Of a DNA stretch of 64,000 nt, positions 4,046 to 63,811 are shown in pieces (position 1 is the first letter of the stretch; every line of letters starts with the position of its first letter). The notes beneath the pieces are model-generated. The model made no database searches, was not told the origin of the DNA, and worked only from the letters and a program-made list of their open reading frames with translations. This DNA comes from Candidatus Heteroclostridium caecigallinarum. GTDB taxonomy: Bacteria; Bacillota; Clostridia; Christensenellales; CAG-314. The translations under genes and the position numbers were made by a program. Location of the stretch: positions 193,814 to 257,813 of the forward strand of contig CAJFSP010000001.1 of the NCBI GenBank assembly GCA_904419725.1. Direction: 5' to 3'.

Positions 4046-4057
4046 ACTCTGCTGTTT

Positions 4058-5889: not shown

Positions 5890-5922
5890 AAAGTATCTTA
5901 CCTTCTTTGGATATTTCGATTT

Positions 5923-6618: not shown

Positions 6619-6632
6619 AATTTTTCCTTTTT

Positions 6633-7343: not shown

Positions 7344-7407
7344 GTTTGTCTCCTTTATGACACGGGCAGCGTGACCGCTGCCCGTTTGGTTTTATTTTAA
7401 TTTCGCC

Positions 7408-8301: not shown

Positions 8302-8304
8302 AAA

Positions 8305-10348: not shown

Positions 10349-10357
10349 GTTCCCTGA

Positions 10358-10572
10358 AAAAAACGCCCGAACCATAAAGGACGGGCGCGTATAACAATAT
10401 TATTTCTCAAAACCAATAGCGCCTCTACCTTACGGTAGGAGTGTCATGGGTGTTTCCCATAACCCCACGGAAAAAATCTGCCGACCTTTCCGTTCGGCGG
10501 TGATTGCCTTTCGCCTGCTTCGCTGACTGCCGTCTCGACAGGTTAATCTTCCGCACCGCTGCCTCTATCATA
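10358..10572 (-). promoter_or_regulatory. lysine riboswitch (L-box) with intrinsic terminator
   Basis: The minus strand reads ATAGAGGCAGCG ... GAAAGGCAATCACCGCCGAACGG ... GGTAGAGGCGCTAT. This matches the P1 5-prime AUAGAGG, the GAAAGG..GCCGAAG core and the 3-prime P1 CUAU of the B. subtilis lysC L-box as I recall it. It is followed by stem CGCCCG/CGGGCG and T7, directly before the lysA RBS. Confidence 0.7.
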
Positions 10573-10703
10573 TTAAATTACAGACATTATATGCCAAAAC
10601 TCCGGAATTGTAAACAATAAACGGCAAATTCGTGGCAAATTATTTTATTTTGCCGCGGTTTATGCTATAATCTGCTTGTTTCAATATACGAGGTAATACG
10701 GAA

Positions 10704-11852: not shown

Positions 11853-11854
11853 AA

Positions 11855-11886
11855 CAAAAAGACGGCGGAAGCCGTCTTTTTGTTTT
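11855..11886. terminator. bidirectional intrinsic terminator
   Basis: AAAAAGACGGC GGAA GCCGTCTTTTT between convergent genes. Confidence 0.8.
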
Positions 11887-11889
11887 CCT

Positions 11890-12987
11890 TTATAACGACG
11901 ATATCAGTTGTTTGTAAAGATTCACGCCGACGTCCAGCACCGACATGTCGAAATCGAACTTTTCGCTGTGGAGTTTCATGCCGCTCCCAAGCCCCAGAAA
12001 GAAAAACACCGTAGGGCATACTCTCGCGTAGAAAGAAAAATCCTCCGCCTGCATTACGGCGTCGGGCAGGATTTTGACATCGCACACGGCGCACACCATG
12101 TCAAACAGTTTGCCGTCGTTTATGACGGGCGGATATCCTTCGCCCATGTTTATTTCCGCCGTCACGCCGTATTTTTCCGACACTTCTTCCGCCGCCGCCG
12201 AGATATCCCCTTTGATTAAAGAAAACATATTTTCCGACAATACCCTGACGCTGCCCTGCATGACGGTATTGTCGCTTATTATATTGCGCAGGCTTCCCGA
12301 ACGCATCTTGCCGAATTTCACGACGCATTTTTCCTGCCCGCAGCGTTTCGCTTCGATATCCCTGAGTTTAAGCAGAAGTTCCGCCGCCGCCATAAGGCTG
12401 TCGGCGCCCTTGCCCATGTCGGCTATATGGCTTGCCTTGCCGCGCAGCACGATGTCCGTTTCGGACGATTTCGCCATCATCGCGCCGCTCTTGGAAAAAA
12501 TTTCGCCTTTGGTAAGTTCCGGCCAGAGATGTATGCCGAAAGCGCAGGTCACGTTCAGTTTGCGCAGAACCCCGCTGCCCACAATGTACCTCGCTCCGCC
12601 GTCGAGTTCTTCCGCCGGCTGAAACACAAACACGACGTTACGCTTCGGTTTTGCCCCGCTTTTTTTCAGTTCCGCCGTGTAAAGCGCCGCTTCCAGCGCC
12701 ATCGCCATGTGTCCGTCGTGACCGCAGGCATGCATAAATCCCTCATGCTCCGAAGCGAAAGGCAGACCTGTTTCTTCTTTTATCGGCAAAGCGTCCATAT
12801 CCGCCCTTATACACAGCGCGCTGTCGCGGCCGAAATCGAAAAACGCAGCGATACCCGTTTCTTTGATGTGAAAAATCTCGCAGCCGAGCCCGTCCAGCAC
12901 AGACAGAATGTATTTTTTTGTTTCGTTTTCACGGTACCCTATTTCAGGTATCCTGTGCAAATCTTTTCTGAAATCACGAGCAGTCAT
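11890..12987 (-). CDS. M20-family amidohydrolase, probably N-acetyldiaminopimelate deacetylase
   Basis: 365-aa ORF with the M20D metal-binding motif MHACGHDGH. The specific role is inferred from DAP pathway context. Confidence 0.75.
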   Translation of the reverse strand: MTARDFRKDLHRIPEIGYRENETKKYILSVLDGLGCEIFHIKETGIAAFFDFGRDSALCIRADMDALPIKEETGLPFASEHEGFMHACGHDGHMAMALEAALYTAELKKSGAKPKRNVVFVFQPAEELDGGARYIVGSGVLRKLNVTCAFGIHLWPELTKGEIFSKSGAMMAKSSETDIVLRGKASHIADMGKGADSLMAAAELLLKLRDIEAKRCGQEKCVVKFGKMRSGSLRNIISDNTVMQGSVRVLSENMFSLIKGDISAAAEEVSEKYGVTAEINMGEGYPPVINDGKLFDMVCAVCDVKILPDAVMQAEDFSFYARVCPTVFFFLGLGSGMKLHSEKFDFDMSVLDVGVNLYKQLISSL

Positions 12988-13136
12988 AAAAAAACCTTCC
13001 CGTAAAATAATTTACATCAATTTCGGTTTATAAGCAATACTATGCGCGTAAAAAAAAGCAAATCGCTTTGGTTTTTACGGTCTATTTTGTTGCCTTTTTA
13101 ACTAGCCGGTACTAAAATATTTTTCGGAGGATTTTT

Positions 13137-14354
13137 ATGAACACTCTGTTATGCCTGAGTATCGCTTTTGTCGGGGGTCTGCTCGCGACAAAGGCAATGA
13201 AGATTTTCAACCTGCCTAACGTGACGGGTTTTCTGATAGCGGGTCTTATAATAGGTCCGAGCGTCTGCGGTTTTGTTTCAGCCGAAGACGTGGCGAGTTT
13301 TTCAATTATTTCCGACGTCGCTTTGGGGTTCATAGCCTTTTCAATCGGCGTGGAATTCAAGTTCAGCCATCTTAAAGAACTCGGCGGAAAAGTTATCGTC
13401 ATCACGCTGTTCCAGTCGCTGCTGGCAGTGGCTCTCGTCGACGTGGCGCTCATCGCATTCGGCGCCGACACTGGTCTGTCGCTGGTGCTGGGCGCAATCG
13501 CCGCCGCGACGGCGCCTGCCGCCACGCTCATGGTCATCAGACAGTACAGGGCAAGCGGCCCTGTCGTCGAAACCTTGCTGCCCGTCGTCGCTTTCGACGA
13601 CGCCGTCGGACTTGTCGTGTTTTCGGTGTCCATAGCCCTGGCGAGAGTTTTTTCCACCGGAGCGGAACTGACCGTACAGTCGATTCTCGTTACGCCGCTC
13701 ATTGAAATCATCGGCTCGCTCGCGCTGGGTCTGATTTTGGGCGCCGCGCTCTGGTTGTTGAACAAATGGTTCAAACTCGGCGAAAACAAACTTATTTCGG
13801 CGATTCTGGTGGTCTTCGCCGCCACAGGGCTGGTGCAGCTTGTCTCTTCGCTCTGGGGAATAGACATGTCGGGACTTCTGGTCTGCATGATGGTCGGCGC
13901 CACTTTTACCAATATGTGCGTCGACGAAACGGAAGTGCTGTCGAGATGCGACGCCTGGTCCACCCCGCTGCTTATGCTGTTTTTCGTTATTTCGGGCGCG
14001 CAGCTGGATATTTCTGTAATACCGTCGATAGGCGTTATAGGCGTTATATATATTCTCGCCCGCTCCATAGGCAAATACGTCGGAGCGTATACGGGGTGCA
14101 AACTGACAAAAGCCAACCCCGTTGTCACGAAATATCTCGGCTGGACGCTGCTGCCCCAGGCCGGCGTGGAAATAGGCATGGCGCAGGTCGCAATGGCGGC
14201 GCTGCCGGCGATAGGCGCGCAAATCAACACCGTTGTGCTGTGCGCGATATTCGTCTATGCCATCATCGGTCCGATTATAACCAAAATCGCTCTCACGAAA
14301 GCGGGTGAAATCCAACCGAACCAAAAAAGGGTCAAAGACAAAGCGCATGAATGA
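13137..14354 (+). CDS. cation:proton antiporter (Na_H exchanger family)
   Basis: 405-aa polytopic membrane protein with an N-terminus (LPNVTGFLIAGLIIGPS) typical of the CPA family. Confidence 0.85.
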   Translation: MNTLLCLSIAFVGGLLATKAMKIFNLPNVTGFLIAGLIIGPSVCGFVSAEDVASFSIISDVALGFIAFSIGVEFKFSHLKELGGKVIVITLFQSLLAVALVDVALIAFGADTGLSLVLGAIAAATAPAATLMVIRQYRASGPVVETLLPVVAFDDAVGLVVFSVSIALARVFSTGAELTVQSILVTPLIEIIGSLALGLILGAALWLLNKWFKLGENKLISAILVVFAATGLVQLVSSLWGIDMSGLLVCMMVGATFTNMCVDETEVLSRCDAWSTPLLMLFFVISGAQLDISVIPSIGVIGVIYILARSIGKYVGAYTGCKLTKANPVVTKYLGWTLLPQAGVEIGMAQVAMAALPAIGAQINTVVLCAIFVYAIIGPIITKIALTKAGEIQPNQKRVKDKAHE

Positions 14355-14371
14355 CAGACTATATAAATATT

Positions 14372-14399
14372 ACGGACGGCAAACGCCGTCCGTTTTTTT
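14372..14399 (+). terminator. intrinsic terminator
   Basis: ACGGACGGC AAAC GCCGTCCGT followed by T7. Confidence 0.8.
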
Positions 14400-14488
14400 G
14401 TACAAAATCAAATTTAATTTGCCTTAAATACTTTTATTGTACAAATAAATATGTTAGAATATTGCCATAAATTTCCAGCGAGGTACAA

Positions 14489-14878
14489 ATGATAACAGAA
14501 ACAGCATTTTTGGGCACACAGCGCATTTCAGACGCCGATGTCTACGCTTTTATTTCGCACACGCTGAACGACATAGGCATTTCGGCGCATTTGAAGGGAT
14601 ACAACTTTCTGCGGGTGTGCGTGAACCTTAAACGAGTCAACCCGAACTATAAAAGCAAAGAGATGTTCCGCATAGCGGCGGAAAAGTTCGGCACGAACGA
14701 AAACAACGTCAACAGCGGCATTCACCACGCCCTGAAAACAGCGTGGGAAAGCGGCAAAATCGGAAATCTAAACAGCCGTTTCGGCGTGGATTATTTCAGA
14801 CAGGGCAAACAGATGTCAAATTTCAAATTCATTTCAGTTCTCGCCGACCTTATATCGGTGTATTACGCCGTAAATTAA
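14489..14878 (+). CDS. stand-alone Spo0A C-terminal (DNA-binding) domain protein
   Basis: 129-aa ORF. The segments IGISAHLKGYNFLRVCV, ...NNVNSGIHHALKTAWESG... and ...FGVDYF..KQMSNFKFISVLAD parallel the Spo0A effector-domain segments GVPAHIKGY.YLR, RVERAIRHAIEVAW and PTNSEFIA. There is no receiver domain. Confidence 0.7.
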   Translation: MITETAFLGTQRISDADVYAFISHTLNDIGISAHLKGYNFLRVCVNLKRVNPNYKSKEMFRIAAEKFGTNENNVNSGIHHALKTAWESGKIGNLNSRFGVDYFRQGKQMSNFKFISVLADLISVYYAVN

Positions 14879-14956
14879 ACGCGTGGTTTCGCTTTTCGCG
14901 CAAAAACAAGCGCGCGGGATATCCCGCGCGCCGGCTCTTGAAAAACTTTTGACTTT

Positions 14957-16720
14957 TCAGATACGCCAGTCGGCGCTTTGCTTCTGCAAAGCCAGCATTC
15001 CGGCATAAATTCCGCCATTTTCTTTCAGTTCCGCGGGGGTCCCCTGCTCCGCCACTTTGCCGTCTTTTATGAGCACGAGTTTGTCCGCGTCCTCCACCGT
15101 TCTCAGGCGGTGCGCTATAATCACCACCGTTTTATCTTTGATAAGCCCTGAAATCGCCTGCTGGATTTCCGTTTCGTTTTCGGCATCGAGCGAGGCGGTG
15201 GCTTCGTCAAGCACCACAATCGGCGCGTCTTTAAGCATAACCCTGGCAATGGCTATCCGCTGTTGCTCGCCGCCCGAAAGATACACGCCTTTGCCGCCTA
15301 TAACCGTGTCGGCGCCATGCGGAAACTTTGCAAGAATATCGTCGCACTGCGCGTCGCGCAGCGCCGTGAGCACTTCTTCCCTTGTGGCGTCAGGTCTGCC
15401 CATAAGCACGTTTTCGTATATGGAAGTCTTCAAAAGACGGCTGTCCTGAAAAACATAGGCGACTGTGTCGCTGAGAGTTTTTTTGGCTATGTCTTTAACG
15501 TTGACGCCGCCCACGCTGACAGAGCCGTGAGATACGTCCCAGAACCTGGCGATAAGCCCCGCCGCCGTAGTCTTGCCGCCGCCAGACGGCCCTACGAGAG
15601 CGACAGTCTGCCCCGCCTCAACCTTGAAAGAAACACCTTTAAGCGCGTCGCCGACGGCGTCAGCGTAGCGGAACGCAACATCTTTGAATTCTATGGAATT
15701 ATCCGACGGCTCAATCGGGTTTCCGGTTTCAGGCAGCGGCGCGAGATTTATAATTGAATGTATTCTGTTCAGCGCGTCGCTTACTATAAGACTGTTTTCG
15801 CTCATGAACATGACTTTCATCAGCGTGACGGATATGATTGGCGTAAAGATAATGTAAAAAATCAGGTTGAGCAGAAAATTTCCGTCAACGCCGCCGGCGG
15901 TGAAGCAAAGCCCCGCTATAATGAGCGGCACAAACACGCAGTTGACCGCCGTCGTGAAAGCGACCATTGGCCACATAAGGCTTTTGGTGTAGGCGATGAC
16001 CCATTTGTGATAACTGTCTATCGAACCTTTGAACCGCTTGAAAGAAAACACCGTCTGCCCGAAAGTTTTGACGACGGGCACGCCGCGCACATATTCCACT
16101 GCCTCGTTGTTCATGTCTTCCAGCGCGCTTTGATATTCTTTCATTTTTTCCGCCATGCCTTTACCCGTCATTTTCGACATGATAATAAAGCCCAGCACAG
16201 TGGGAACAAGGCTCAACAGACCCAGCCGCCAGTCAAACACAAACAAAAGCGCGAGCATGCCTACCGGTGTAACAAACGCCCCAACCATGTCGGGGAGCTG
16301 GTGCGCCAGATACGTTTCCGTGGCTCCGCTGGATTCGTTGACGATTCGGCGAACCCTGCCGCTGCCCAGCCCGCTCATAAACCCCGCCGGAAGCGACGCT
16401 ATGTGCCGCATTGCTCTTTTGCGCATATTGCCCGCCACCCGGAACGCCGCCACATGCGAACACATGAGCGCGGCAAAATAGACGAGCATTGACAAAAGCG
16501 CGCTGCCGACAGCCCACCAGCCATAAACGGCAAGCGCGCCGCCAACCGCGGCAAAATCACCATCCGCCCACAGCACTTCGCGCACGATAAGCCACACGAA
16601 AACAAACGGAGCCAGCGCCAGCAAAGCGCTGACTGCGGAAAGCAGCCACGACGAGTATGTCAGATATCTGCGCCTGCCGGCGTAACGCATCAGTTCGGAT
16701 AAATTACCTCTTTTCCCCAT
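14957..16720 (-). CDS. ABC exporter, fused permease/ATPase
   Basis: 587-aa ORF with an N-terminal 6-TM domain, Walker A GPSGGGKTT, signature LSGGEQQR and Walker B VVLDEATS. Confidence 0.9.
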   Translation of the reverse strand: MGKRGNLSELMRYAGRRRYLTYSSWLLSAVSALLALAPFVFVWLIVREVLWADGDFAAVGGALAVYGWWAVGSALLSMLVYFAALMCSHVAAFRVAGNMRKRAMRHIASLPAGFMSGLGSGRVRRIVNESSGATETYLAHQLPDMVGAFVTPVGMLALLFVFDWRLGLLSLVPTVLGFIIMSKMTGKGMAEKMKEYQSALEDMNNEAVEYVRGVPVVKTFGQTVFSFKRFKGSIDSYHKWVIAYTKSLMWPMVAFTTAVNCVFVPLIIAGLCFTAGGVDGNFLLNLIFYIIFTPIISVTLMKVMFMSENSLIVSDALNRIHSIINLAPLPETGNPIEPSDNSIEFKDVAFRYADAVGDALKGVSFKVEAGQTVALVGPSGGGKTTAAGLIARFWDVSHGSVSVGGVNVKDIAKKTLSDTVAYVFQDSRLLKTSIYENVLMGRPDATREEVLTALRDAQCDDILAKFPHGADTVIGGKGVYLSGGEQQRIAIARVMLKDAPIVVLDEATASLDAENETEIQQAISGLIKDKTVVIIAHRLRTVEDADKLVLIKDGKVAEQGTPAELKENGGIYAGMLALQKQSADWRI

Positions 16721-37469: not shown

Positions 37470-37503
37470 AAAAACAAAGCGCGGAGACCTTCTCCGCGCT
37501 TTG
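37470..37503 (-). terminator. intrinsic terminator closing the sipW/tasA-like operon
   Basis: The minus strand reads AAGCGCGGAGA AGG TCTCCGCGCTT followed by TGTTTTTT, 52 nt after the stop of the 1198-aa gene. Confidence 0.8.
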
Positions 37504-37554: not shown

Positions 37555-40500
37555 TCACCTCACTTCAATCCTGTTAGCACCCGCCAGACTTTCGCCCAAA
37601 CGGCTATCGTTCCCTGAATCATAATTACCGGACACATATCCGCCGGAACATACCGCCGTATGGCTGCTCGCGATAATTTCGTTAACTGTAATTTCGGCTC
37701 CGACGCCGTCCCATGTAGATATTGCGTTTCTGCTACAAGAAGCGCCGATAGCCCCGTTTATATAGTAAGGATATAAGTTTTGCCCAAAAATAGTAGTACC
37801 ATAGTGCCGCTCGCTGACGCCGATAAACGTGCCGCCGGAAATCTGTACATTGTGATTGGTAGGCACGGCGTTGAAATACAATCCCGAGCGCGTGCCTTTG
37901 AACTCACCGCCGGAAATGGTAAGGCCGTTTCTTTCAGACGACGCGTGATTATACAATACACCGTTAAATCCGCTGAAATTGCCCCCGCTAATGCTGACGG
38001 CGTTTTCAGTAAGGGCAGCGTCCAACATCAAACCGGAAGACCGTGAATCCGTTGTCCCCGTGCCCGTAAACGTGCCGTTTGTAATAGTGAGTTCAACGCG
38101 TCCTTCGCCGTACCAAACGCCATTGCCGTAATCAGTGTCTTTGCTGCTGAACGTGCCGCCGTTGATTGTGACGGAAGAACCCGCGTCACCGCGGTATTCG
38201 ACAGTCATGCCCGCTTCCGCACCGGTGACAGTAATATCGCCACCCGCGCCGTCTTCACCGCCGCGAGGAGTAAACGTAACGTCAACATATTCAAACACCG
38301 AAAAAGCCGCCTGACCTTTTACATCAAATGTCCCGCCGTAAATATTGGCTTTCGCCTGATTGGTCGAAGTACCCATGACAAACGCACCGCTGCCGCTTGA
38401 GCCTTTGCCGAAAGTGCCGCCGTAAATGTTGGCTGTGCCGCCGTACATTTTGAAGGCGTATGACGCGGCGGGACCGGCAAGCAGTCCGTTTTTTTGGGAA
38501 CTATAGTTATCGTTGCCGTCAAAGTTTCCGCCCCATATATTAGCGGTGCCGTCGCGGACAAGAATACCTTCACCTTGCGCCGCCGAATAAGTACCGTTAT
38601 ATACCGTCAGCGTTCCGCCGCTGACTTCAATCGCGTGGCCGCCGGTTCTGCTGAGCCTGTAATTCCAGTTATCGCCGTTTGCCTGCTGCTCATAAAATGT
38701 GTTAAATAACATATCGCCTGTGGTCGTGATTGTAATATCGGAAGGTGAGTTCGTACTTCCATTTCCCATGTAAACGTCGCCGCCGGAAACATAAAGACCG
38801 CCGCCACTGGTATTGCTAATATCACTCTTAAAAATAGTGACTTTCGTGTCAATACCATCCGTACCTTCAACACGCACGGCAAAACTTCTTATCTCATAGT
38901 TGCGATATCTCTCGTTTTCGTCATAATCCCCCTGATTCTCAATATTCGCCACGCCGGTATGATTTACGTTGAACGTGCCGTTTGCCGTCAGCGAGCCGCC
39001 CTGAATATACACGCCGTTGTATATGTTGACATTAGCGTTGCCGCCCGCCTGATTGCCTTCTTCGTCGGGAGGAGTCACCCAGCCATAAGCTTCGTTTATA
39101 GTGCTGGTGATCTCCGCCGTTGTTTCTTCATTTATCGTCAGATTGCCGCCGTTGATGTAAATCGCCGTGCCGTTTTTCGACGTGAGCGTGAACTCTGTCG
39201 TCGAAATATTTATACTGGCGCCGCTTCTGGCGGTGATGCCGAGACCGTCAGTCGTTATGGTCGCGCTGCCGCCCGCAATGGAAATGTCGCCCCCCTCGGA
39301 ACTGATTGCCGCGCTTGACAGAAGATTATCCGTCATCCCTACAATAGTACTATTATATTCGCCGTCAACGCTGATATTTCCGCCATATGCCAATATACCG
39401 GCGGAATACGTTCCGTTGACGTCTATCACGGTTGAGCCGCAGCAGTCGACCGTGCCGCCTGCGGAGTAAATGCCGCGGGCATAACTGCCGACCATGTCAA
39501 ACAAGCAATTTGTCGCCTTTATCGTGCCGCCGCCCGAATATATGCCGTAAATACTGTTATAATTGCCGCCCTGACCGACATTGAAAACCGTGTCGGAAAC
39601 TGTCACCGAGCCTGCCGCGCCGCCTGACGTTTCCGATGAAATGCCGCGTGTGGAAGAGCCTGCGATTGTGAAAATTATTTTATTTTGCGCGCTGCCCGTG
39701 ACAGACAGCGTGCCGCCGCTGACGGAAATGCCGTTCATATAATTTCCGGTCAGGTTAAATCCGATAGCCGACGACGTGGAAGAGACGTACAGTTCGCCGC
39801 CGGTCATGGATATCGCCGAACCGTTGTCCTGCGAAGAAGCAAACTCCGCCGTTATTTTCTTTGTAAACGACACGTCGCCCGACACACGCATAAGCCCGCC
39901 CGACACCGCTATCGTGTCGCCCGTCTGCGAGTAAAAATCACCGCTGGCGACGCGCAGATATTCATCCTCCGAAACAGAGCCGTAAGAAATGCTCACGCAT
40001 TTACCCGCGCCGTGCGCCTGAAAACTGCCGACGCCGTTTTCAACCGCCATGTATCCGCCCGTGGCGTATACGCAGTAAGTACTGTCATTGCCGAAATATG
40101 AAACGTAATCGCCGCCGCGCACATACAGGTTGCCGCTGTTCATCTGAATGGCGGCGTACGTCGCCGCGCTTTGGGCGGCGCTCATGACGCCGTTGTAGCC
40201 GTAAACGGTAACCTCAATCTCTTCCGCTCCGCTGCTTTCAGCTGCGGAGTACACCACGCCCGAGCCGTCAAAAGAACGGTAAAGAGTGTAGGTATAATAA
40301 AAATCCGCGCTGCCGTTGTCCGCCGCTATCAGCGAGTTGGAAACGCTGTCGTCCGACACGGTAAAATAGAGATAAGCGTCCTTTGAAATCCCTATTGATG
40401 ACGCGTCGGCGTCGAAATAGAAATTGCCGTTTACGCTGTGCTGCGGCGTGCCTCCGTCTGACGGCGCGCTACCCACATTGGTTACCGCGGGAATAATGAC

Positions 40501-41151
40501 AGGCATATTTTCTTGCCGTTCGGTATATCCGCCGTCGTTTTTTTCATAATACGCCACGCTTGCCGTACCGTTTATTTCGGCGCCCGCTTTATTGCGCCAA
40601 ACGCCGTCTGTCTGATAAGCGTATTCGGAAGAATAGACAGCCGAGTCGCCGGCGAGGTTTTCGCCGTCTCTCGGGCCGCTTTCAAACAGCCCTGCCGCCA
40701 CAGTCAGCGTGCCGCCGCTTATGCGCAGAACGCTGCCGACAGGGTTATAAAAACTGCCGGTCTGCTTTTCCGACGTGTCGATAATAGTGAGTCTGACGCC
40801 TTCCGTCACGTTGAGCATAGGCTCCCTGTTGTTTCGCTGCAATTCATGGCCGTTGAGGTCTATCGTCAAATCGGAATTGACATCGGACACACTGCCGGTG
40901 ATGATAAGCGGATTGTCGACGTCGTCAGACACTTTGATATTGCTGTAACCGTTTTCGATTGCGGAGAAAAACTCGTCAACCGAGTGGATTTCAACCTGTT
41001 CAGAGACGATATATTCCAGACTGCCGGAATATTCGCTGCCAGAGGTCAACTCTTTTGAATATCTGCCCTGCGTCAGCGAAACGCTCATGAGCGTGACAAT
41101 AAGCAGAGATATCAGCGCGCAAAGCGCGGCGTTTCTTTTTCCGACAGTCAT
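37555..41151 (-). CDS. 1198-aa secreted right-handed beta-helix repeat protein with a SipW-class N-terminal signal
   Basis: The N-terminus is K/R, a hydrophobic helix (AALCALISLLIVTLMSV), then SLTQGRYSKE. More than 20 irregularly spaced GG[TSDEN][LFI]-type rungs follow (ISGGTLTV, VSGGTLSV, INGGNLTI, IYGGTFGK, ISGGNFSG, ISGGTFIG ...). It has no LPXTG, SLH or C-terminal TM. The RBS GAAGGGGGTGG precedes it and its start overlaps the upstream stop as ATGA. Confidence 0.85.
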   Translation of the reverse strand: MTVGKRNAALCALISLLIVTLMSVSLTQGRYSKELTSGSEYSGSLEYIVSEQVEIHSVDEFFSAIENGYSNIKVSDDVDNPLIITGSVSDVNSDLTIDLNGHELQRNNREPMLNVTEGVRLTIIDTSEKQTGSFYNPVGSVLRISGGTLTVAAGLFESGPRDGENLAGDSAVYSSEYAYQTDGVWRNKAGAEINGTASVAYYEKNDGGYTERQENMPVIIPAVTNVGSAPSDGGTPQHSVNGNFYFDADASSIGISKDAYLYFTVSDDSVSNSLIAADNGSADFYYTYTLYRSFDGSGVVYSAAESSGAEEIEVTVYGYNGVMSAAQSAATYAAIQMNSGNLYVRGGDYVSYFGNDSTYCVYATGGYMAVENGVGSFQAHGAGKCVSISYGSVSEDEYLRVASGDFYSQTGDTIAVSGGLMRVSGDVSFTKKITAEFASSQDNGSAISMTGGELYVSSTSSAIGFNLTGNYMNGISVSGGTLSVTGSAQNKIIFTIAGSSTRGISSETSGGAAGSVTVSDTVFNVGQGGNYNSIYGIYSGGGTIKATNCLFDMVGSYARGIYSAGGTVDCCGSTVIDVNGTYSAGILAYGGNISVDGEYNSTIVGMTDNLLSSAAISSEGGDISIAGGSATITTDGLGITARSGASINISTTEFTLTSKNGTAIYINGGNLTINEETTAEITSTINEAYGWVTPPDEEGNQAGGNANVNIYNGVYIQGGSLTANGTFNVNHTGVANIENQGDYDENERYRNYEIRSFAVRVEGTDGIDTKVTIFKSDISNTSGGGLYVSGGDVYMGNGSTNSPSDITITTTGDMLFNTFYEQQANGDNWNYRLSRTGGHAIEVSGGTLTVYNGTYSAAQGEGILVRDGTANIWGGNFDGNDNYSSQKNGLLAGPAASYAFKMYGGTANIYGGTFGKGSSGSGAFVMGTSTNQAKANIYGGTFDVKGQAAFSVFEYVDVTFTPRGGEDGAGGDITVTGAEAGMTVEYRGDAGSSVTINGGTFSSKDTDYGNGVWYGEGRVELTITNGTFTGTGTTDSRSSGLMLDAALTENAVSISGGNFSGFNGVLYNHASSERNGLTISGGEFKGTRSGLYFNAVPTNHNVQISGGTFIGVSERHYGTTIFGQNLYPYYINGAIGASCSRNAISTWDGVGAEITVNEIIASSHTAVCSGGYVSGNYDSGNDSRLGESLAGANRIEVR

Positions 41152-42671
41152 ACGCCACCCCCTTCACCGCTTTGAGACGCCTGGGTAAACACCACCGTCA
41201 TATCGATGTAATATGTTTTGCTGAGCGAATTGTAAATATTATATACATGCTGCCCGCCTTGTTGCTGATTGTCGTAAGTATCGTAAAACGGGCTGTCCGG
41301 CAATTCCGCGAACGAAATGAAATACACGCCCTCATAACCGCCGTTTATGCCGCCGTTTTCGTTGATATCAAGCGACTGGTAATAGTTCGAGCATATGCCG
41401 AAAACGCCGTCGTTTCCGCCAAGCGACGCGCCACCGAAAGCGTAAGCCGAGCCGTCGCCGCTGAAATAGTTTTCTATTTCATGCACGAAATTCACGGTGG
41501 ATTCGCTTATCGGAGCGACGTGGAAATAACCCGTCGAAACGCTGCCGTCATATTTTCCGTCGGCGCCGACGCCGAAGGTTTTAACGACGCGCACGGTGGT
41601 CGTCGCGTCACGCGTTGTAAATCCGCCGCCGTTAAAAACGTAAGTCGCCGCTTCGGCGTCGAAATGATAACCCAGCACTTTCGCGCCGTTGAAAGTATAA
41701 CAGTCTTCACCTGCAACAGGCGTAAGATAATCGTCGTAATTATCCTTGTTTCCGTCGCTTCGCGAGCCGCCTTCGGTGTACCACTGCTGACCGTAATCTA
41801 TATTGTCGACCTTTTCGGCAAGCGACATATACAAAATCAGGGTCTGTTCTTTGTCACGCGCGGCGGCAAAGTCCAGCAAACCGCCGCCGAGATTGATATC
41901 TATCGTGTAAAAGGTGATTTCTTTTTCAAGGTCAAGATACAACTGCGTCTGCAAATCGCTGTCGTTTTCGCCCCTGCGGAAACCGACGGAATAACTCACC
42001 GTTTCGTTTGAGGCGGAAATGGTTATTCCGTTGCCGCCAGCGCCCGTGGCGGAAACATGCCCGTCTTCCGAAACGGAGCCGTTCACGCTGAGCGTTTCGT
42101 CCGCGGCGCCCGGAACGGAGTTATAATCCACGGACTTTGCCGTTTCGATTGTTCTTTCGCCGGAAGCAGGCTGCCTGACGCCGTTTGTCTCGACGTATTC
42201 GTAAATATTATCGCCGTTGGCGTCCGCCACCTGATAAACCAGGTTGCCGAGCACATATTGCGGAGTAACCGCCGTCTGGGTGTCGCCGTCGTTTACCGCC
42301 ACGACTTGCAGCACCATGTTGTCGGCGAGTTCTCTCGGGATATACAGCCGCAATGTGGCGAGCAGACCCACGTCGCTAATGCGCCGGACGCCGCCGTCGG
42401 CGTTCTTTTCAAAATTGCGCAAAGTAAAACGCACCGTGCGCGCGGTCCCCTGCGCGCCGCCCGATTCCAGCCAGTAGTTGGCGTTGGTGAAAGACGTGGA
42501 AGAAATGTCGTCTATTTCATACGAAGCGATGTAGCGGCTGAGAGTAGACTGCACGTCGCCGCTGGTGCCCGTCGAATAGCGTGAAAAAGTCACGCCTGTG
42601 AACAACACGCTCACGGCGAGCAGATAGCAGAGATATGAAACCAACGGAATTTTTTTAGTTTGTCTTTTCAT
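41148..42671 (-). CDS. 507-aa secreted protein of unknown function with a SipW-class N-terminal signal
   Basis: The N-terminus is MKRQTKK, a hydrophobic helix, then GVTFSRYSTGTSGD. The mature part starts with a TasA-like F-x-L-x-N segment (RTVRFTLRNFEKNADG). It overlaps the signal peptidase gene by 17 nt. Confidence 0.8.
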   Translation of the reverse strand: MKRQTKKIPLVSYLCYLLAVSVLFTGVTFSRYSTGTSGDVQSTLSRYIASYEIDDISSTSFTNANYWLESGGAQGTARTVRFTLRNFEKNADGGVRRISDVGLLATLRLYIPRELADNMVLQVVAVNDGDTQTAVTPQYVLGNLVYQVADANGDNIYEYVETNGVRQPASGERTIETAKSVDYNSVPGAADETLSVNGSVSEDGHVSATGAGGNGITISASNETVSYSVGFRRGENDSDLQTQLYLDLEKEITFYTIDINLGGGLLDFAAARDKEQTLILYMSLAEKVDNIDYGQQWYTEGGSRSDGNKDNYDDYLTPVAGEDCYTFNGAKVLGYHFDAEAATYVFNGGGFTTRDATTTVRVVKTFGVGADGKYDGSVSTGYFHVAPISESTVNFVHEIENYFSGDGSAYAFGGASLGGNDGVFGICSNYYQSLDINENGGINGGYEGVYFISFAELPDSPFYDTYDNQQQGGQHVYNIYNSLSKTYYIDMTVVFTQASQSGEGGGV

Positions 42672-43194
42672 CTTTTCTCTCTTTCTTTTTCACGAGGGAC
42701 GGCAAATCGGCCGCAAGCCATATAAGCGCGCCGCCGCCCAGCACGGCGAAAAACCCCGCCGGACTTTGCAGAAACAGCACGGCGCCTCCAATGCCCCCTA
42801 CGGAAGCCACCACTTTGCCGACAACCGCTTCACGAGGGACGGCAAACAGGTCCTGCCAGTTGTTGGCGTCGCCCTTTGTCGTGTATGTGCCGTCCGCCGT
42901 AAGAATGATTCTGTGGGTGACGTACTCGTTCCTGTCGCTGTCGAAAAACGTAATGACGTCGCCGACAGAATAGGTGTCGCAGGCTTTGGTAACGATAAGG
43001 TCGTTTATTTTAAGTTCGGGTTCCATGCTGCCGGACGTGACCACCGCGAAAGAATACCCGAAAAACGTCGGTCTGTCCTGCCGCAGAATGTATTTCGCGG
43101 CAAGCATCCACGCGTTGTAAACAACAAGGACGGTCATCACAAATATAAGCAGCGCCTTTACGGCGAACCCGACGATTCGAGATGTTTTTCCCAT
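42655..43194 (-). CDS. sipW: signal peptidase I, ER/archaeal (S26B, SipW-like) type
   Basis: 179-aa ORF with the catalytic Ser box VVTSGSMEPE, the His box YVTHRI and TKGDANN. It has N- and C-terminal TM helices. Its start codon abuts the upstream stop (TAAATG). Confidence 0.85.
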   Translation of the reverse strand: MGKTSRIVGFAVKALLIFVMTVLVVYNAWMLAAKYILRQDRPTFFGYSFAVVTSGSMEPELKINDLIVTKACDTYSVGDVITFFDSDRNEYVTHRIILTADGTYTTKGDANNWQDLFAVPREAVVGKVVASVGGIGGAVLFLQSPAGFFAVLGGGALIWLAADLPSLVKKKERKDEKTN

Positions 43195-44694
43195 TTAAGC
43201 GACATAGGCGGAAAAGCCTATGTTGAGCGTGTAAGTCGCCCCGTTTTCGCCCGCGACGGTATCCACGGCGTCATTGTGCGCCCACTTCCATTCAAGTTCA
43301 AACACCGAATCCGAATTGGCTTCGATTGTAAGTCCGCCCGCACCGACGCTCAGCGGCTCTACGCCGACATAATTGCCGTCGGCGCCGACGATATACGCGC
43401 CGTCGCGTTTGAGGCGGTAAGTTATGTCGATGCCGTAATCGTTCGCCTCGGTGAAAGTGAACGAAAACACAAGCGCGTTGTCGTTTCTGTTTTCAAATGT
43501 GAAAGCGTAAGTGCCGTCCTGCCCCGGCGCGATTACCGTGTCGCCGAACACTTCGTTCATAAACACGGGGATGTTTTCCATGTCGTCCCACGACCTGCCG
43601 TCGGCGTCGGCAACAAACAGAGTAGGCGCGTAGTCGCCGCCTGTTGACCTGGTGAGAAAATACGCCCCCAGACAGACGGACAGAGCCGTCATTACGACAA
43701 GCAAAATGATGAGCACCAGCAGCAAAACAGGCGTGCGGCGCAGAGTGGCGACATAAGTATTGCGCATTGAAAGCACGTTGTCATGCCCGTCGAGATAGGC
43801 GCTCTTCACGCCGTCACCGTAAAAATAGACGCTTTCGTCTTCTTCACGGAAATCGCCGAGAGCCTTGTCTTCGGCGTCGTACCACACGCCGCGGCGCACT
43901 TTGCCTATGCGGTTGCCCTCGCCGTCAAACACGATGCCGCGCGCCGGCGCTTTAACCCCCGCCGCCACGGCAGGCTCTGCGGCGGCGGAGTCTTCCGTTT
44001 CTGTATATACAATAGGCGGAACCGCCGCTTCACGCTCAACGTACACCACTTTCGGCGCCGTCTTGCGCGGCTTTTTGAATATGCCCGCCTGGTCTTTCGG
44101 TTCATAGTTTTCATCGGGAACAAAACCGTTAAGCCTCATGACGTCGTCAATAAGACTCACGGCGTTTTTAACCTGTCTGTCCGACGAAAGTTTTATCATC
44201 ATCGGCGTTTTGGCGTAACGCCTGACGTCGCTGTAATCTTTGTGGTGATATTTCTGTTCGCTGTATTCACCAGGGCTGAGCGCCAAAAACAAGCGCAGGT
44301 ATCCGCCCACGATGCAAAGTTTAGCCAACAGTTTTTTGCCGCAGCTGAAAGTTTCGCCCCCTCCTGTTACACGGGCGCGCAGCGGCTTTTTGCGCTTTTC
44401 GGCGGGACGATAACTCAAAAAGGCGTTTTTTATCGCGTCATAACGCCTGCCCGTGATATATCCCGCTTCGCCCATGCGCAGGGCAAATTTGGGAGCCTTG
44501 CCCGTAACGGCGGAAGGCACCGTTGTTTTTTTGTCGGGCGAAAGGTCTTCGCCCTGTTTAGCCGACAAAGTTTCGTACACGGCAAAATCAGCCGACTCCG
44601 TCGGTTTCGTCTGAGTTTCTTCGTTGAATTCCGTCAAATCGGACGGCGCGGTCATCTCTTCCGCCGCCAATTGATTTTGTTCTTTTTCTGCCAT
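43195..44694 (-). CDS. bitopic membrane protein: unknown cytoplasmic domain, one TM helix and a TasA-like ectodomain
   Basis: The start is set at the ATG at 44694 (MAEKEQNQ). The central TM is LLLVLIILLVVMTALSVCLGAYFL. The C-terminal ~130 aa carry VIAPGQDGTYAFTFENRNDNALVF and WKWAHNDAVDTVAGENGATYTL. These match the 228-aa protein (DELDTFAGENVATVSW) and the TasA-type APGD..F.F.N.G motif. Confidence 0.75.
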   Translation of the reverse strand: MAEKEQNQLAAEEMTAPSDLTEFNEETQTKPTESADFAVYETLSAKQGEDLSPDKKTTVPSAVTGKAPKFALRMGEAGYITGRRYDAIKNAFLSYRPAEKRKKPLRARVTGGGETFSCGKKLLAKLCIVGGYLRLFLALSPGEYSEQKYHHKDYSDVRRYAKTPMMIKLSSDRQVKNAVSLIDDVMRLNGFVPDENYEPKDQAGIFKKPRKTAPKVVYVEREAAVPPIVYTETEDSAAAEPAVAAGVKAPARGIVFDGEGNRIGKVRRGVWYDAEDKALGDFREEDESVYFYGDGVKSAYLDGHDNVLSMRNTYVATLRRTPVLLLVLIILLVVMTALSVCLGAYFLTRSTGGDYAPTLFVADADGRSWDDMENIPVFMNEVFGDTVIAPGQDGTYAFTFENRNDNALVFSFTFTEANDYGIDITYRLKRDGAYIVGADGNYVGVEPLSVGAGGLTIEANSDSVFELEWKWAHNDAVDTVAGENGATYTLNIGFSAYVA

Positions 44695-44876
44695 CGGTCT
44701 TACCTTTATCCGCCATGGCGGACACACAATACACACAGTATGCCGTCCTGTGCCCCGCTCCTGTCGGAACGGGGTAGGACGCACAGGGCAACCGCCCCTG
44801 AAAACGCCCTGCCTCCTATGCCACACAACGGCGGCACGGCATTTCACAAAACCGTTTCAAACGGCCGAGTAGTCAG

Positions 44877-45563
44877 TTATGCCGGTATTTCAGATGCCTG
44901 AACGGCGGTATAAGACACATCCCAACTTACAGTGGCGACGTTTTCTCCCGCAAAGGTATCAAGTTCATCCATATCAACGCCGTCGTCACTTGCGCTATAT
45001 TTAGTCGTCCATGTAACAACAGCATAAATGCTGATGGATTCTCCGACACCAAGCTCATCGCCGATTGCGTTACCAGAAGATATGCCGTTATTCAAATAAT
45101 CATTTGTCCAACTGGCCTCACTTCCATAATACAGCGCAATGTCAAACAAACCTTTCACCTGTTCTTCCGTTTTTACTGATGAAGGCTTATCCTGTATGGA
45201 CGCAAAACTATCGCTGTTTTGATATGTAAGCACCAAATTTCCAACAGAAATAGTTATTGAAGCCGCAACATCGCCTTCATTGGTGATGGTCGCTATCAGC
45301 TGAGGAGCAGTGGAATTTGAAACATCAGCTCCCGGTGAATCTTCAAAACTTGACATGCTAGGCGACAGCCCTTCATCAAAAGTAACCGTTATTTCATCGG
45401 CACCAGGACCATTTATTTTCCACGCCGCCACGCCGGTGCTCGCCGAACCGTTGCCGCCGCTTGTGTAGCGCGCAAAGGTACTGCCGAGAAAACAGCAGCT
45501 GATGAGCGTCAGCGCGATAAGAGCGATGAACAGTTTTGCCCCTATACTCTTTCTTTGAGTCAT
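44877..45563 (-). CDS. small secreted TasA/camelysin-like protein (candidate major fibre subunit) with a SipW-class signal
   Basis: 228-aa ORF with a strong RBS (AAAAGGAGG). The N-terminus is MTQRKSIGAK, a hydrophobic helix, then GSTFARYTSGGNGS. This parallels the T-[LF]-A-x-F-[TS]-D type of SipW-dependent signals. Confidence 0.75.
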   Translation of the reverse strand: MTQRKSIGAKLFIALIALTLISCCFLGSTFARYTSGGNGSASTGVAAWKINGPGADEITVTFDEGLSPSMSSFEDSPGADVSNSTAPQLIATITNEGDVAASITISVGNLVLTYQNSDSFASIQDKPSSVKTEEQVKGLFDIALYYGSEASWTNDYLNNGISSGNAIGDELGVGESISIYAVVTWTTKYSASDDGVDMDELDTFAGENVATVSWDVSYTAVQASEIPA

Positions 45564-59338: not shown

Positions 59339-59406
59339 GTAATTCTGACCGTTTTTCCAATAAAACGCGTTCCGCGTTTGTATATATGTTAAAGGAGGGC
59401 AAAACG

Positions 59407-60240
59407 ATGAAAAAGAACGGAGGAAAAATTCTTTCATTATCACTGGCCGCGGGTCTGGTTTTATGCGGCGGCGCTCTCGCTGGCTGCTCGTCCGACGGCG
59501 GTTACACCCTTGACACGCCGGGCGACGTATATTCTTTCGCCGCGGCGACGTCGGCCGCCATGCTTTCGGGCGGGGCGGCGCAAAGCGCTGACGGCGGACA
59601 AATCGCCGTCGGGCTGAACAAATATATAATCGTGCCGGAATGTGTCGTCGGCAGACAAATGCCGACAGTAGCCGAAGCGGACGCGGATTCGGAATTTTCT
59701 TCCGTAATGACGATGTCGTATAAAACGTTGGGCGGCGAAACCGTCGAGTGCGAACTGCTTTACAGCGAAACCTCCGACGGCGGCTCGTCGGCGCTGCGCG
59801 GCGAAATAACGGCGAACGGCAGCGTTTATACCGTCACGGGCGAAACCGCCCTGATTGACGGCGGCGGCACGGCGGTATCCGTCGTCACGGCAAACGGCGA
59901 CGACAAAATAGAGTTCAGCTGTCTAACGACCGACGGCGGACAGCAGATTTCTTACGGAATTTACGACGACGGCGCGCTTGCCGACGAAATGTCGATGACT
60001 CTTTCCATTTCCGACGGAAAAACAATTCTGGACATGGAAACGGAAATTATGGGCGCCGAAGCGCGCTTTTCAATGACCTGCGACAAAAACGCCGGTTCGT
60101 TTGACATCGCCTGCGAAATCGGCGGGTTGAGCGGCTCAGTCAACGTTTCGGTCTCCGACGGCGCTTATACATACACCGTAAACGGCGCGTCGTCCGATTT
60201 CGACCGGTGCTTTGGCTTCAATCTTAATTCGGCGGCGTAA
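59407..60240 (+). CDS. putative lipoprotein
   Basis: The start is set at the ATG at 59407, behind the RBS AAAGGAGGG. The signal is MKKNGGKILSLSLAAGLVLCGGALAGC with the lipobox LAGC. Confidence 0.75.
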   Translation: MKKNGGKILSLSLAAGLVLCGGALAGCSSDGGYTLDTPGDVYSFAAATSAAMLSGGAAQSADGGQIAVGLNKYIIVPECVVGRQMPTVAEADADSEFSSVMTMSYKTLGGETVECELLYSETSDGGSSALRGEITANGSVYTVTGETALIDGGGTAVSVVTANGDDKIEFSCLTTDGGQQISYGIYDDGALADEMSMTLSISDGKTILDMETEIMGAEARFSMTCDKNAGSFDIACEIGGLSGSVNVSVSDGAYTYTVNGASSDFDRCFGFNLNSAA

Positions 60241-62098: not shown

Positions 62099-63811
62099 TT
62101 ATTCGGTCACGTCATCAGTCGAAGTTGTTACCTGAGTAAACCAATCTGACGGCGGACCGCTAGGCGCTTCGGCAACAGGTGTGCCGCCGATTTCGGTGTA
62201 ATATTCATTAACATCAACCATGCCCGTTTCGTCAAAATCGAAAAGTTGCAGCTGATATACTCCGCCTTCGAAAACACAATTTTCAGCGGTATAATCATTA
62301 GTAGAAGAATAACCGACCGAGATCGCACACCAGACATTTTCAAACGCAACATCTTTAAGCATTACAGACGAATCACTCATTCTGCTGCCGCCTATTTGTA
62401 CGCCCCATCTGTAATTTGTTATGACGCAATTTTCAACATTAAGGGTTATCCCGGTGCCGTTAACATTGCCGCTCAATCTTATCGCCTGATAGTTAGAAGT
62501 GGCGGTCGCAACCAATTTTATTCCCTTAACAGTATATGTAACATTTTTGACGCTACCGCCACCGAATTCCACTGTGCCGTTAACAGTAACATCACCCATG
62601 CCGATTATAGTCGCCCCTACGGCATTGCTGAGTATAATATCGGTGTTATAAGTGCCTTCAAACAATGCGAGTATCGCGTTTTCAGTATCAGTCATCTCAG
62701 CGATTGCCTTGCCGATGTTAGTTGGCGTTGCCACGACAATTTTCGACGCCGTGTTGAACTGAGCGTCCGCCGTCCAGATATAACGTGTAAGCGCGCCCTC
62801 ATTGTTCACAAAAGGCATTGTCATGACTATCGCTTCCTGATTGAATGTTTCAGGAACTTTAACTTTGCCGCTGAGCGTGGTATATTCTACTTCTTCATCG
62901 CAGTATATCTGCAGCTGTTCGGCAAACGAGCAGTTTTCGTCAACGGTGAGCACCGTGGACGGAACAGCCCAGTTTCTGCCTACCACGTCGATATTGACGC
63001 CGCCCCAGCCGTTGCCGCTGGTAGTCACGTTGTTGAGCGTAACGACTGAGTCGTTGACAAGCACGCCCACGCCGTTGTTGTCAGAAGCGGTGATGTTCGA
63101 AACGACAACAGTGCCCGCCTGCGCGATGTTTATGCCGTGCGCGGTATCGCTTCCACCGTTGCCCATGGAAGCGGTTTTGCCGTTTTTGACGGTGAGATTG
63201 CTGATGTTGACGTCAGCGCCGTTGGTAACGGTGATTATGGAAGTTTTTCCGTGCGAAGTGCCGGCGGTAAATCCGTCCTCACTCTCCGGCTGCAAAATAA
63301 CGCCTTCTTCGCTTTCACCGATTATCGTCAGATTGCGGTCGATGTACACCTGGCTTGCCAGATTGTAAGTGCCGTTTTCCACGAAAATCGAACCGTTGGC
63401 GGTATCGGCAACAGCGGCAAGCAGTTCAGCCGCCGTATCGACCGTCACGTCGGCAGGGCTGACGTTTACCGTGCAGGTGGCGGTTTGCTCACCGGCGGCG
63501 GCGGTTATCGTGGCGGTGCCCGCCGAAACAGCCGTCACTGTAACGGTCGCCCCCTTATTGGCGCTGAGGCTTATCACGCCTGAGCCCTGGGCGTCAACCG
63601 TCCATGTGATTTCGTCGGTGCTGTCGCCGGGTTCGACAGTGGCTGTCAGCTGAGCGCTTGTCGCCTTGCTGCCTGTAACGACAAGTTCGACGCTTGAACT
63701 GTTAATCGAAATATCCGTCGCGGGCACGTTGTTGCCGCACGCGGCAAAAATTCCCAATGAAAAAATCATTGCCAACGCGAGCACAATGCCCAAGAATTTT
63801 TTAGATTTCAT
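62099..63811 (-). CDS. surface lipoprotein with a Big_2 Ig-like domain and two right-handed beta-helix modules
   Basis: The start is set at the ATG at 63811, behind the RBS GGAG. The signal is MKSKKFLGIVLALAMIFSLGIFAAC (lipobox). A Big_2-like segment follows (LTATVEPGDSTDEITWTV...VTAVSAGTATITA), then NosD/pectate-lyase-like rungs (ISNLTVKNG, VSNITASDNNGVGVLV, LNNVTTSGNGWGGVNI). Confidence 0.8.
   Translation of the reverse strand: MKSKKFLGIVLALAMIFSLGIFAACGNNVPATDISINSSSVELVVTGSKATSAQLTATVEPGDSTDEITWTVDAQGSGVISLSANKGATVTVTAVSAGTATITAAAGEQTATCTVNVSPADVTVDTAAELLAAVADTANGSIFVENGTYNLASQVYIDRNLTIIGESEEGVILQPESEDGFTAGTSHGKTSIITVTNGADVNISNLTVKNGKTASMGNGGSDTAHGINIAQAGTVVVSNITASDNNGVGVLVNDSVVTLNNVTTSGNGWGGVNIDVVGRNWAVPSTVLTVDENCSFAEQLQIYCDEEVEYTTLSGKVKVPETFNQEAIVMTMPFVNNEGALTRYIWTADAQFNTASKIVVATPTNIGKAIAEMTDTENAILALFEGTYNTDIILSNAVGATIIGMGDVTVNGTVEFGGGSVKNVTYTVKGIKLVATATSNYQAIRLSGNVNGTGITLNVENCVITNYRWGVQIGGSRMSDSSVMLKDVAFENVWCAISVGYSSTNDYTAENCVFEGGVYQLQLFDFDETGMVDVNEYYTEIGGTPVAEAPSGPPSDWFTQVTTSTDDVTE

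Follow-up and report, generated by a model that had tools for sequence, protein, structure and literature searches.

A 64,000-nucleotide window of the genome of Candidatus Heteroclostridium caecigallinarum (assembly GCA_904419725.1, contig CAJFSP010000001.1, positions 193,814 to 257,813 of the forward strand; hereafter the window, with positions counted from its first nucleotide) carries on its minus strand a six-gene operon in the order sipW-like 1, 228, 486, sipW-like 2, 507, and 1198, where the numbers give the lengths of the encoded proteins in amino acids (aa). The 228-, 507-, and 1198-aa proteins share an N-terminal module. Together with the two SipW-type signal peptidases, this module looks like part of a TasA-like, undescribed surface-fiber system of uncultured gut Clostridia. 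We favor, with moderate confidence, an interpretation in which the shared N-terminus serves for export and processing in an operon that builds a joined surface structure. The features discussed below are listed in Table 1.

Table 1. Positions of the operon, its parts, and the adjoining features in the window (the arrow marks a predicted cleavage site)
Feature	Position	Strand	Basis or remark
Xre-type helix-turn-helix regulator gene	46720..47100	+	Pfam HTH_26 and HTH_3; divergent, adjoins the operon promoter
Promoter-like site TTGACA-17-TATACT, 11/12 matches	46526..46554	-	Upstream of the peptidase 1 gene; consensus scan alone
SipW-like (S26B, ER/archaeal-type) signal peptidase 1, 234 aa, charged C-terminal tail	45779..46483	-	TIGR02228, 72.1 bits
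228-aa protein, proposed major fiber subunit	44877..45563	-	Homologs, AlphaFold2 model, Foldseek
N-terminal module of the 228-aa protein, residues 1–48 (basic n-region, helix, G-S-T-F-A↓R-Y-T-S, Gly/Ser linker, V-A-x-W)	45420..45563	-	
Motif T-F-A-R-Y-T, residues 29–34 of the 228-aa protein	45462..45479	-	Pattern scan and family site statistics
Hypervariable cassette, from codon ~48 of the 228-aa gene to its end	44883..45422	-	Nucleotide comparison with two same-species contigs
486-aa bitopic membrane protein (cytoplasmic N-domain, one transmembrane helix at ~43663–43746, beta-rich ectodomain)	43195..44655	-	As called in public assemblies; longest open reading frame extends to 44847
SipW-like (S26B) signal peptidase 2, 179 aa	42655..43194	-	TIGR02228, 78.1 bits
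507-aa protein, N-module and large beta-rich body	41148..42671	-	Homologs, AlphaFold2 model
Motif T-F-S-R-Y-S, residues 28–33 of the 507-aa protein, predicted cleavage S30↓R31	42573..42590	-	Pattern scan and family site statistics
1198-aa protein, N-module, conserved N-terminal region (NPVGSVL...GGTLTV), strain-variable C-terminal part	37555..41151	-	
Looser motif T-Q-G-R-Y-S, residues 27–32 of the 1198-aa protein, predicted cleavage G29↓R30	41056..41073	-	Pattern scan, family site statistics, and hhalign
Terminator-like hairpin, 13 pairs and T-run	37475..37503	-	~50 nt past the 1198-aa stop; consensus scan alone

A shared N-terminal module in three otherwise unrelated proteins

The N-termini of the 228-aa (LISCCFLGSTFARYTSGGNGSAS), 507-aa (VSVLFTGVTFSRYSTGTSGDVQS), and 1198-aa (LMSVSLTQGRYSKELTSGSEYSG) proteins, as re-read from the nucleotide sequence, are identical to those given in a preliminary description of this DNA. 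In all three, the module consists of a basic n-region, one hydrophobic helix, the motif T-x-[A/S/G]↓[R/K]-[Y/F]-[S/T], 12–18 Gly/Ser-rich residues, and a first beta-strand (V-A-x-W-x-I, S-Y-E-I, or E-Y-I-V-S). The motif had been described as T-F-[AS]-R-Y-[ST] in all three proteins. This wording fits the 228- and 507-aa proteins but not the 1198-aa protein, which has T-Q-G-R-Y-S. A strict pattern ([TS][FL][AS]RY[ST]) has only two matches in the six-frame translation of the 64 kb, at the N-termini of the 228- and 507-aa proteins. It had also been claimed that no other secreted protein in the window has the motif. This holds, yet the comparison set is tiny, as the only other recognizable exported proteins are two lipoproteins (with the lipoboxes LAGC at 59386–60240 on the plus strand and FAAC at 62099–63811 on the minus strand).

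The motif is conserved in the families of all three proteins, as site statistics over the non-redundant sequences with the site illustrate. Among the 312 sequences of the 228-aa family, position -3 is always T, position -2 is mostly F (280; L in 19), position -1 is A in 309 and G in three, position +1 is R in 304 and K in eight, and position +2 is Y in 310. The 154 sequences of the 507-aa family have T (142) or S (11) at -3, S (103) or A (50) at -1, R at +1 without exception, and Y at +2 in 150. For the 1198-aa family (41 sequences), the counts are T in 38 at -3, G in 24 and A in 17 at -1, R in 38 and K in three at +1, and Y in 33 and F in eight at +2. Thus, a small residue occupies position -1 in every sequence of the 228- and 1198-aa families and in 153 of the 154 sequences of the 507-aa family. 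The common core of the three families is therefore T-x-[A/S/G]-[R/K]-[Y/F]. The residues at -3 and -1 agree with the -3/-1 rule of type I signal peptidases and predict a cut directly before R-Y.

Conservation of the motif is far beyond chance. Among 3670 six-frame open reading frames from 49 related loci, the strict motif follows a hydrophobic stretch 49, 38, and three times in the 228-, 507-, and 1198-aa families, respectively, and once elsewhere. Profile–profile comparison with hhalign indicated that the three families are alike over the first ~45 residues only, and that their bodies are unrelated. The match between the 228- and 507-aa families (probability 91.6%, E 8e-7) is confined to the N-module; the corresponding values are 90.6% and 1.3e-6 for the 228- and 1198-aa families, and 40% and 2.9e-4 for the 507- and 1198-aa families. 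Mean pairwise identity within the module exceeds that of the remaining residues in the 228-aa family (72% versus 39%) and in the 507-aa family (59% versus 39%).

For the 228-aa protein, the predicted cut lies between codon 31 (A, 45471–45473) and codon 32 (R, 45468–45470). Residues R32, Y33, A46, and W48 are invariant. Within the helix, L18, T19, S22, and C24 are invariant in an alignment of 29 sequences, and C23 is nearly so. Residues 22–24 (45491–45499, minus strand) belong to an L-I-S-C stretch that resembles a lipobox and is not conserved as such, and a cysteine is fixed in this presumably cleaved helix.

Two SipW-type signal peptidases and a conserved gene order

Both peptidases exceed the curated cut-off (51.85 bits) of TIGR02228, the model of archaeal/endoplasmic reticulum (ER)-type signal peptidase I, and are of the MEROPS S26B type. 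The two are 35% identical to each other. The SGSM, (V)THR, and GDAN boxes are present in both and highly conserved among 45 orthologs of peptidase 1 and 44 orthologs of peptidase 2; from what is established for SipW, we take these to hold the catalytic Ser and His (not Lys) and the Asp box. With the Bacillus SipW equivalog model NF046067, both peptidases score 71.5 bits versus a cut-off of 190, so they are of the SipW type but are not SipW orthologs. Peptidase 1 has a charged tail of ~40 residues (ELARKDEEIARLRAIVERQ; 45779–45900, minus strand) after its C-terminal hydrophobic segment. This tail is partially conserved among the orthologs and is missing from peptidase 2.

The genes are tightly packed. 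The peptidase 2 gene overlaps the 507-aa gene, which in turn overlaps the 1198-aa gene, and the stop of the 486-aa gene is immediately followed by the start of peptidase 2. At the level of sequence patterns, the six genes are bracketed by a single promoter-like site and a single terminator-like hairpin. No tandem repeats of note were found in the operon.

The 49 related loci come from a search that covered each GTDB species with one genome. All belong to metagenome-assembled genomes of uncultured Clostridia or Bacillota, and the named genera are Ca. Gallimonas (Clostridia incertae sedis in the NCBI taxonomy), Protoclostridium, Scatosoma, Borkfalkia, and Coproplasma. The six-gene order is conserved in about 45 of these loci, with both peptidases and all three putative substrates in fixed synteny. 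It holds wherever the contig is long enough, except in L021 and L044. Across genera, the operon has diverged to 30–50% identity, yet the motif is kept. Taken together, the sequence patterns support well the view that the three proteins carry a signal for dedicated peptidases, as far as signal and predicted cleavage are concerned. The earlier suggestion that the motif may define a substrate code for both peptidases is overstated.

The two exceptions differ in kind. The L021 locus (9977–16253) is apparently a degraded or decaying copy, in which the 486-, 507-, and 1198-aa genes are split and peptidase 1 is absent. The L044 locus (1621–9204) has an operon without peptidase 1, and its homolog of the 228-aa protein has a signal like that of the 507-aa protein (S-G-I-T-L-A↓R-Y-V-S-S). 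This combination is a hint that signal and peptidase co-vary.

The 228-aa protein and its hypervariable cassette

The 228-aa protein has 731 homologs, every one of which is unannotated. A profile search against 1.84 billion cluster representatives at 50% identity found 1762 representatives at E<=1e-3, of which 1445 have E between 1e-10 and 1e-3 and 187 have E<=1e-30; the best 150 of the 1762 matches are all full-length members of the family. An AlphaFold2 model based on 29 family sequences (mean predicted local distance difference test score, pLDDT, of 81.7) has a helix at residues 8–29, a segment below pLDDT 50 at residues 29–47, and a beta sandwich thereafter. In a Foldseek search against the PDB, the TasA fiber 8aur_A ranked first with a probability of 0.91, although the match is weak (E 2.9e-3, TM-score 0.30, root mean square deviation 9.3 Å). 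Further weak neighbors in the PDB are the donor-strand fibrils TLP-1a/b, the lectin domains of the F17-G pilus, and the tip adhesin CupB6. At the sequence level, hmmsearch of the family against the PDB returned just chance matches to CD40L.

Two public contigs of the same species, L053 (228-aa gene at 4628–5329) and L054 (10001–10711), allow a comparison among strains. The flanking genes, both peptidases, and the 486- and 507-aa proteins have 98–100% protein identity, whereas the 228-aa protein has only 56–57% overall. Its residues 1–48 are 98% identical, and the remainder is 44–46% identical. Nucleotide identity per 60-nt window is 19–65% between ~45422 and ~44883, and 88–100% (mostly >=93%) outside on both sides. 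Among 69 cluster representatives with an identical N-terminus, the variable part falls into three allele classes (43, 17, and nine members), with <60% identity between classes.

Within one species, the 228-aa gene is thus a hypervariable cassette with sharp boundaries. The variability supports the view that the protein may be the major subunit of a filament, exposed at the surface and constant at the ends that serve export and assembly. Flagellins and type IV pilins vary among alleles in a similar way, with constant termini, a divergent exposed region, sharp breakpoints, and few allele classes. However, the export and assembly machinery of those systems is unrelated, and the likeness is a population-genetic analogy rather than homology.

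The other three products of the operon

Neither Pfam nor NCBIfam has a family for any of the four non-peptidase proteins of the operon (228, 486, 507, and 1198 aa). For the 507-aa protein, there are 136 homologs, all without annotation, and identity within the species is 99%. Residues H384, H397, and C427 are invariant. The AlphaFold2 model of this family (43 sequences; pLDDT 87.9, predicted TM-score 0.81) has a helix at residues 10–27 and a disordered segment at residues 26–40 (pLDDT <50). The body may be a new beta-rich fold, as judged from this model.

For the 1198-aa protein, no match was found in Pfam, NCBIfam, or the PDB sequences. Its identity on the two same-species contigs is 91% and 79%, and the first ~450 residues are constant. 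Divergence is mostly C-terminal (37555–39000, minus strand); in L054 (14436–17864), most of it lies beyond about residue 740, and identity drops to 6–8% per 50 alignment columns at the extreme C-terminus. This pattern may point to a distal or adhesive end that is variable.

In the 486-aa protein, the cytoplasmic domain is conserved and belongs to no known family, and the transmembrane helix is followed by A-Y-F-[LM]-x-R-S...D-Y-A-P-V-L-F-V-A. The C-terminus of its ectodomain (D-x-V-D-T-x-A-G-E-N) is like that of the 228-aa protein, with weak hhalign support (E 0.004) that makes it a lead only. A 'PG..G.Y.F.F.N' stretch in the ectodomain recalls TasA, which is likewise only a lead given a non-significant hhalign E of 0.35. 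Searches against the PDB sequences found no relative, and matches to Rad50 were due to chance.

Comparison with TasA and other fiber systems

The mature form of TasA begins at residue 28 after cleavage by SipW, its donor strand comprises residues 28–38, and the N-terminus of TapA is similar (PMC9674648). Among 116 TasA-family proteins used for comparison, the N-termini have an almost invariant G-G-G-T-W-A-A-F-N-D, and the N-module is 76% identical versus 45% for the body. The first 60 of these 116 sequences all have A-F-N-D, S-F-N-D, or L-F-N-D after the site. The hhalign comparison with the 228-aa family found a weak similarity that is limited to the signal (residues 1–33 versus 1–29, E 0.0074) and places G-S-T-F-A-R-Y in register with G-G-T-W-A-A-F of TasA. 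The layout had been proposed to parallel that of the SipW-cognate signal of TasA, and this alignment in register, with the peptidase genes adjacent, is in keeping with that proposal.

Several features of the operon are thus shared with tapA-sipW-tasA of B. subtilis. In both, a dedicated ER-type peptidase is encoded with its putative substrates, and several substrates have one common N-terminal module. The T-aromatic-A residues at -3 to -1 occur in the aligned register. As in TasA, conservation is higher in the signal and the ~17 residues at the start of the mature protein than in the body, and in TasA these residues form the donor strand. However, the cut is followed here by R-Y-[S/T]-x and a Gly/Ser linker ([R/K]-[Y/F]-[S/T/V]-x in the families) rather than by A-F-N-D. 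The operon also has two peptidases rather than one, an additional bitopic membrane protein, and a 1198-aa protein, and its putative major subunit is hypervariable within the species, unlike TasA.

The operon is also comparable to sipW-bsaA-bsaB-bsaC of C. perfringens, which is likewise clostridial and encodes, besides SipW, several secreted substrates, among them a large one. An N-terminal disordered loop of BsaA serves donor-strand exchange (bioRxiv 10.1101/2024.11.04.621531) and was proposed to enter the next subunit before or around SipW cleavage; AlphaFold2 predicts disorder in the segment after the predicted cut of the 228- and 507-aa proteins. The donor strand of TLP-1 is likewise predicted to be disordered by AlphaFold2 (PMC11494351). 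In contrast to BsaA, the proteins have no match to TIGR04090, and the signal motif and accessory genes differ. The archaeal bundling pili AbpA/AbpB (Pyrobaculum) and the TLP-1 fibrils also consist of beta-rich subunits, and these donate an N-terminal strand right after a signal peptidase I site. Such TasA-like donor-strand fibers are among the top structural neighbors of the 228-aa model, and the likeness is weak and structural only. AbpA is processed by a generic peptidase without a dedicated gene, unlike the proteins of this operon.

A possible assembly pathway and its alternatives

In the favored interpretation, the three proteins would enter the Sec pathway by means of the basic n-region and the hydrophobic helix, and the helix would tether them to the membrane. 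One of the two peptidases of the operon would then cut after T-x-[A/S/G], leaving mature ends that start with [R/K]-[Y/F]-[S/T]. By analogy with TasA/TapA and BsaA, the freed N-terminal extension (~12–18 flexible Gly/Ser-rich residues and the first beta-strand) might dock into a neighboring subunit. The 228-aa protein would be the polymerizing, surface-exposed major subunit, whereas the 507- and 1198-aa proteins, which have the same extension, may use it to enter this structure and act as nucleator, cap, or adhesin. An anchor on the cell side or an assembly platform could be provided by the 486-aa bitopic protein.

Several points weigh against this interpretation. Cleavage at T-x-A↓R-Y is a prediction from sequence. 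The curated cognate_SipW model TIGR04088 (34 positions, cut-off 19 bits) found no match at E<=10 on the three N-termini or the full 228-aa protein, while TasA and a TasA-family protein, used as positive controls, scored 38–47 bits over a span (TasA residues 11–44) that covers the helix, site, and donor strand. The label of a 'variant' SipW-class signal, given in the preliminary description, is apt for this reason; the module is like a SipW-cognate signal in position and context and, being unmatched by TIGR04088, is therefore not a member of the curated class. In the global mode of hhalign, the body of the 228-aa protein has no similarity to the TasA family beyond the signal, and the structural match of its model to TasA is weak (TM-score 0.30). 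The model of the 507-aa protein has no PDB fold match at E<=0.001, and the best TM-score is ~0.1. The module of the 1198-aa family is not hyperconserved (38% identity versus 62% in the following 105 residues). Moreover, the constant N-terminus of the 228-aa protein within the species could in part reflect a recombination anchor. Finally, the R-Y-T-S-G-G-N-G-S-A-S directly after the site of the 228-aa protein is Gly/Ser-rich and a poor strand former. In addition, PF12389 (Peptidase_M73), which is present in all 120 TasA relatives, has no match among the proteins of the window at E<=0.1; at E<=10, a Pfam search with 29 sequences of the 228-aa family found neither PF12389 nor any other relevant entry.

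The last of the points on the module bears on the identity of a donated strand. It had been suggested that a shared RY[ST] end would act as the incoming strand in donor-strand exchange. All three proteins do share R-Y-[S/T] after the predicted cut, but the stretch that follows does not suit this role: the part that the predicted mature N-termini have in common is R-Y-[S/T] with ~12–18 Gly/Ser-rich residues, a poor strand former, and the first beta-strand comes only thereafter. Given these Gly/Ser-rich first mature residues, any donated strand may come from the V-A-x-W-x-I segment and not from R-Y-[S/T]. Donor-strand exchange is thus plausible but unproven, on the basis of structural models and analogy.

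Alternatively, the motif may be a recognition and cleavage site only. The three proteins would then be independent secreted or wall-associated proteins (of the matrix, adhesin, or enzyme-like kind) with a common export route and neither a polymer nor strand exchange. This explanation is rather unlikely, although it accounts for the observation that nothing but the N-module is common to three unrelated bodies, one of which (507 aa) has a fold that resembles no pilin. It is also compatible with the Gly/Ser-rich segment after the cut and with a similarity between the 228-aa protein and TasA that is weak structurally and absent at the profile level. However, conservation extends ~17 residues past the site and includes the invariant A46 and W48 of the 228-aa family, which is more than a peptidase subsite requires, and the equivalent conservation in TasA spans the donor strand. 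Constant termini with a hypervariable body are typical of filament subunits, and the synteny of six genes, including one for a bitopic membrane protein, suggests one assembled structure.

Much less probable is an uncleaved signal anchor, in which T-x-A-R-Y and the Gly/Ser stretch would form a stalk close to the membrane (which might, for example, be glycosylated or bind the 486-aa protein) while the peptidases act on other substrates. The helix is unusually conserved (L18, T19, S22, and C24), and an R/K just past it could in principle determine topology. Yet two signal peptidase genes are synteny-locked to exactly these proteins, the nearly invariant T at -3 and small residue at -1 are like a type I cleavage site, and the signals of the TasA family are as conserved but are cleaved.

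It is highly improbable that N-terminal constancy is mainly a by-product of recombination, with the 5' end of the 228-aa gene as a homology anchor for cassette swapping and an incidental resemblance among the three proteins. Although the sharp nucleotide breakpoints near 45422 and 44883 and the three allele classes are what such swapping might leave, the motif is conserved at the protein level across genera despite 30–50% identity of the operon. Furthermore, the motif is also present in the 507- and 1198-aa families, of which the former is invariable within the species (99%), and profile comparison aligns the three modules in register.

A type IV pilin-like or lipoprotein-like protein, whose helix would stay at the core of a filament or give way to a lipid anchor, can practically be dismissed: a hyperconserved hydrophobic N-terminus is known from type IV pilins and L-I-S-C of the 228-aa protein fits the lipobox pattern, but the three N-termini have no G/A↓F/M-x-x-x-E (class III) prepilin site, genes for a prepilin peptidase and a pilus ATPase are absent from the operon, and the lipobox is missing from the other two proteins. 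The L-I-S-C↓C of the 228-aa protein is ruled out as a lipobox because [LVI][ASTVI][GAS]C is not conserved and varies among the orthologs (S-F-C, S-M-C, and L-L-C-V-S-G).

The interpretation of a joined surface structure can be extended to an unrecognized type of Gram-positive filament. Three unrelated subunits would be joined by one universal extension (R-Y-[S/T] and linker), exposed only upon release of the subunit from its signal anchor by one of the two dedicated peptidases, which would act as assembly-coupled gatekeepers. Within a species, the major subunit would be exchanged among at least three serotype-like alleles, with its docking module held constant. In such a filament, peptidase 1 would perhaps serve the major subunit and peptidase 2 the 507- and 1198-aa proteins. 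This extension is offered tentatively, as a possibility.

A regulator gene next to the operon

As in tapA-sipW-tasA, an Xre-type regulator gene is located nearby. An ortholog of this gene lies upstream of the operon in 13 of the 49 loci, at 69–713 nt from sipW-like 1 in 12 of them and at 331 nt from the 228-aa gene in L044. The product has a weak match to the model of Bacillus SlrR (E 0.025), which recalls the control of tapA-sipW-tasA by SinR/SlrR. Regulation of the tasA operon by these proteins is established (PMC9674648).

Implications for uncultured gut Clostridia

Fibers of the SipW/TasA type are the main protein scaffold in Bacillus biofilms, and clostridial and archaeal relatives have been found only recently. 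The logic of a dedicated ER-type peptidase and a shared substrate N-terminus is already known. What is new is the motif together with the pair of peptidases, the accessory proteins, a hypervariable major subunit, and the clade of hosts; Pfam, NCBIfam, and the searchable literature cover none of these. A literature search with the motif strings and TIGR04088 returned nothing relevant.

The operon suggests that the SipW/TasA logic extends to a large group of uncultured gut Clostridia. Because the non-peptidase proteins belong to no Pfam or NCBIfam family and the signal is missed by the curated model, such systems are invisible to current annotation. The 228-aa family is large, as the 1762 representatives illustrate. 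The T-x-[A/S/G]↓[R/K]-[Y/F] signature provides a simple handle for finding such proteins. Finally, the hypervariability of the proposed 228-aa subunit suggests that gut commensals carry a surface antigen that differs at the level of strains.

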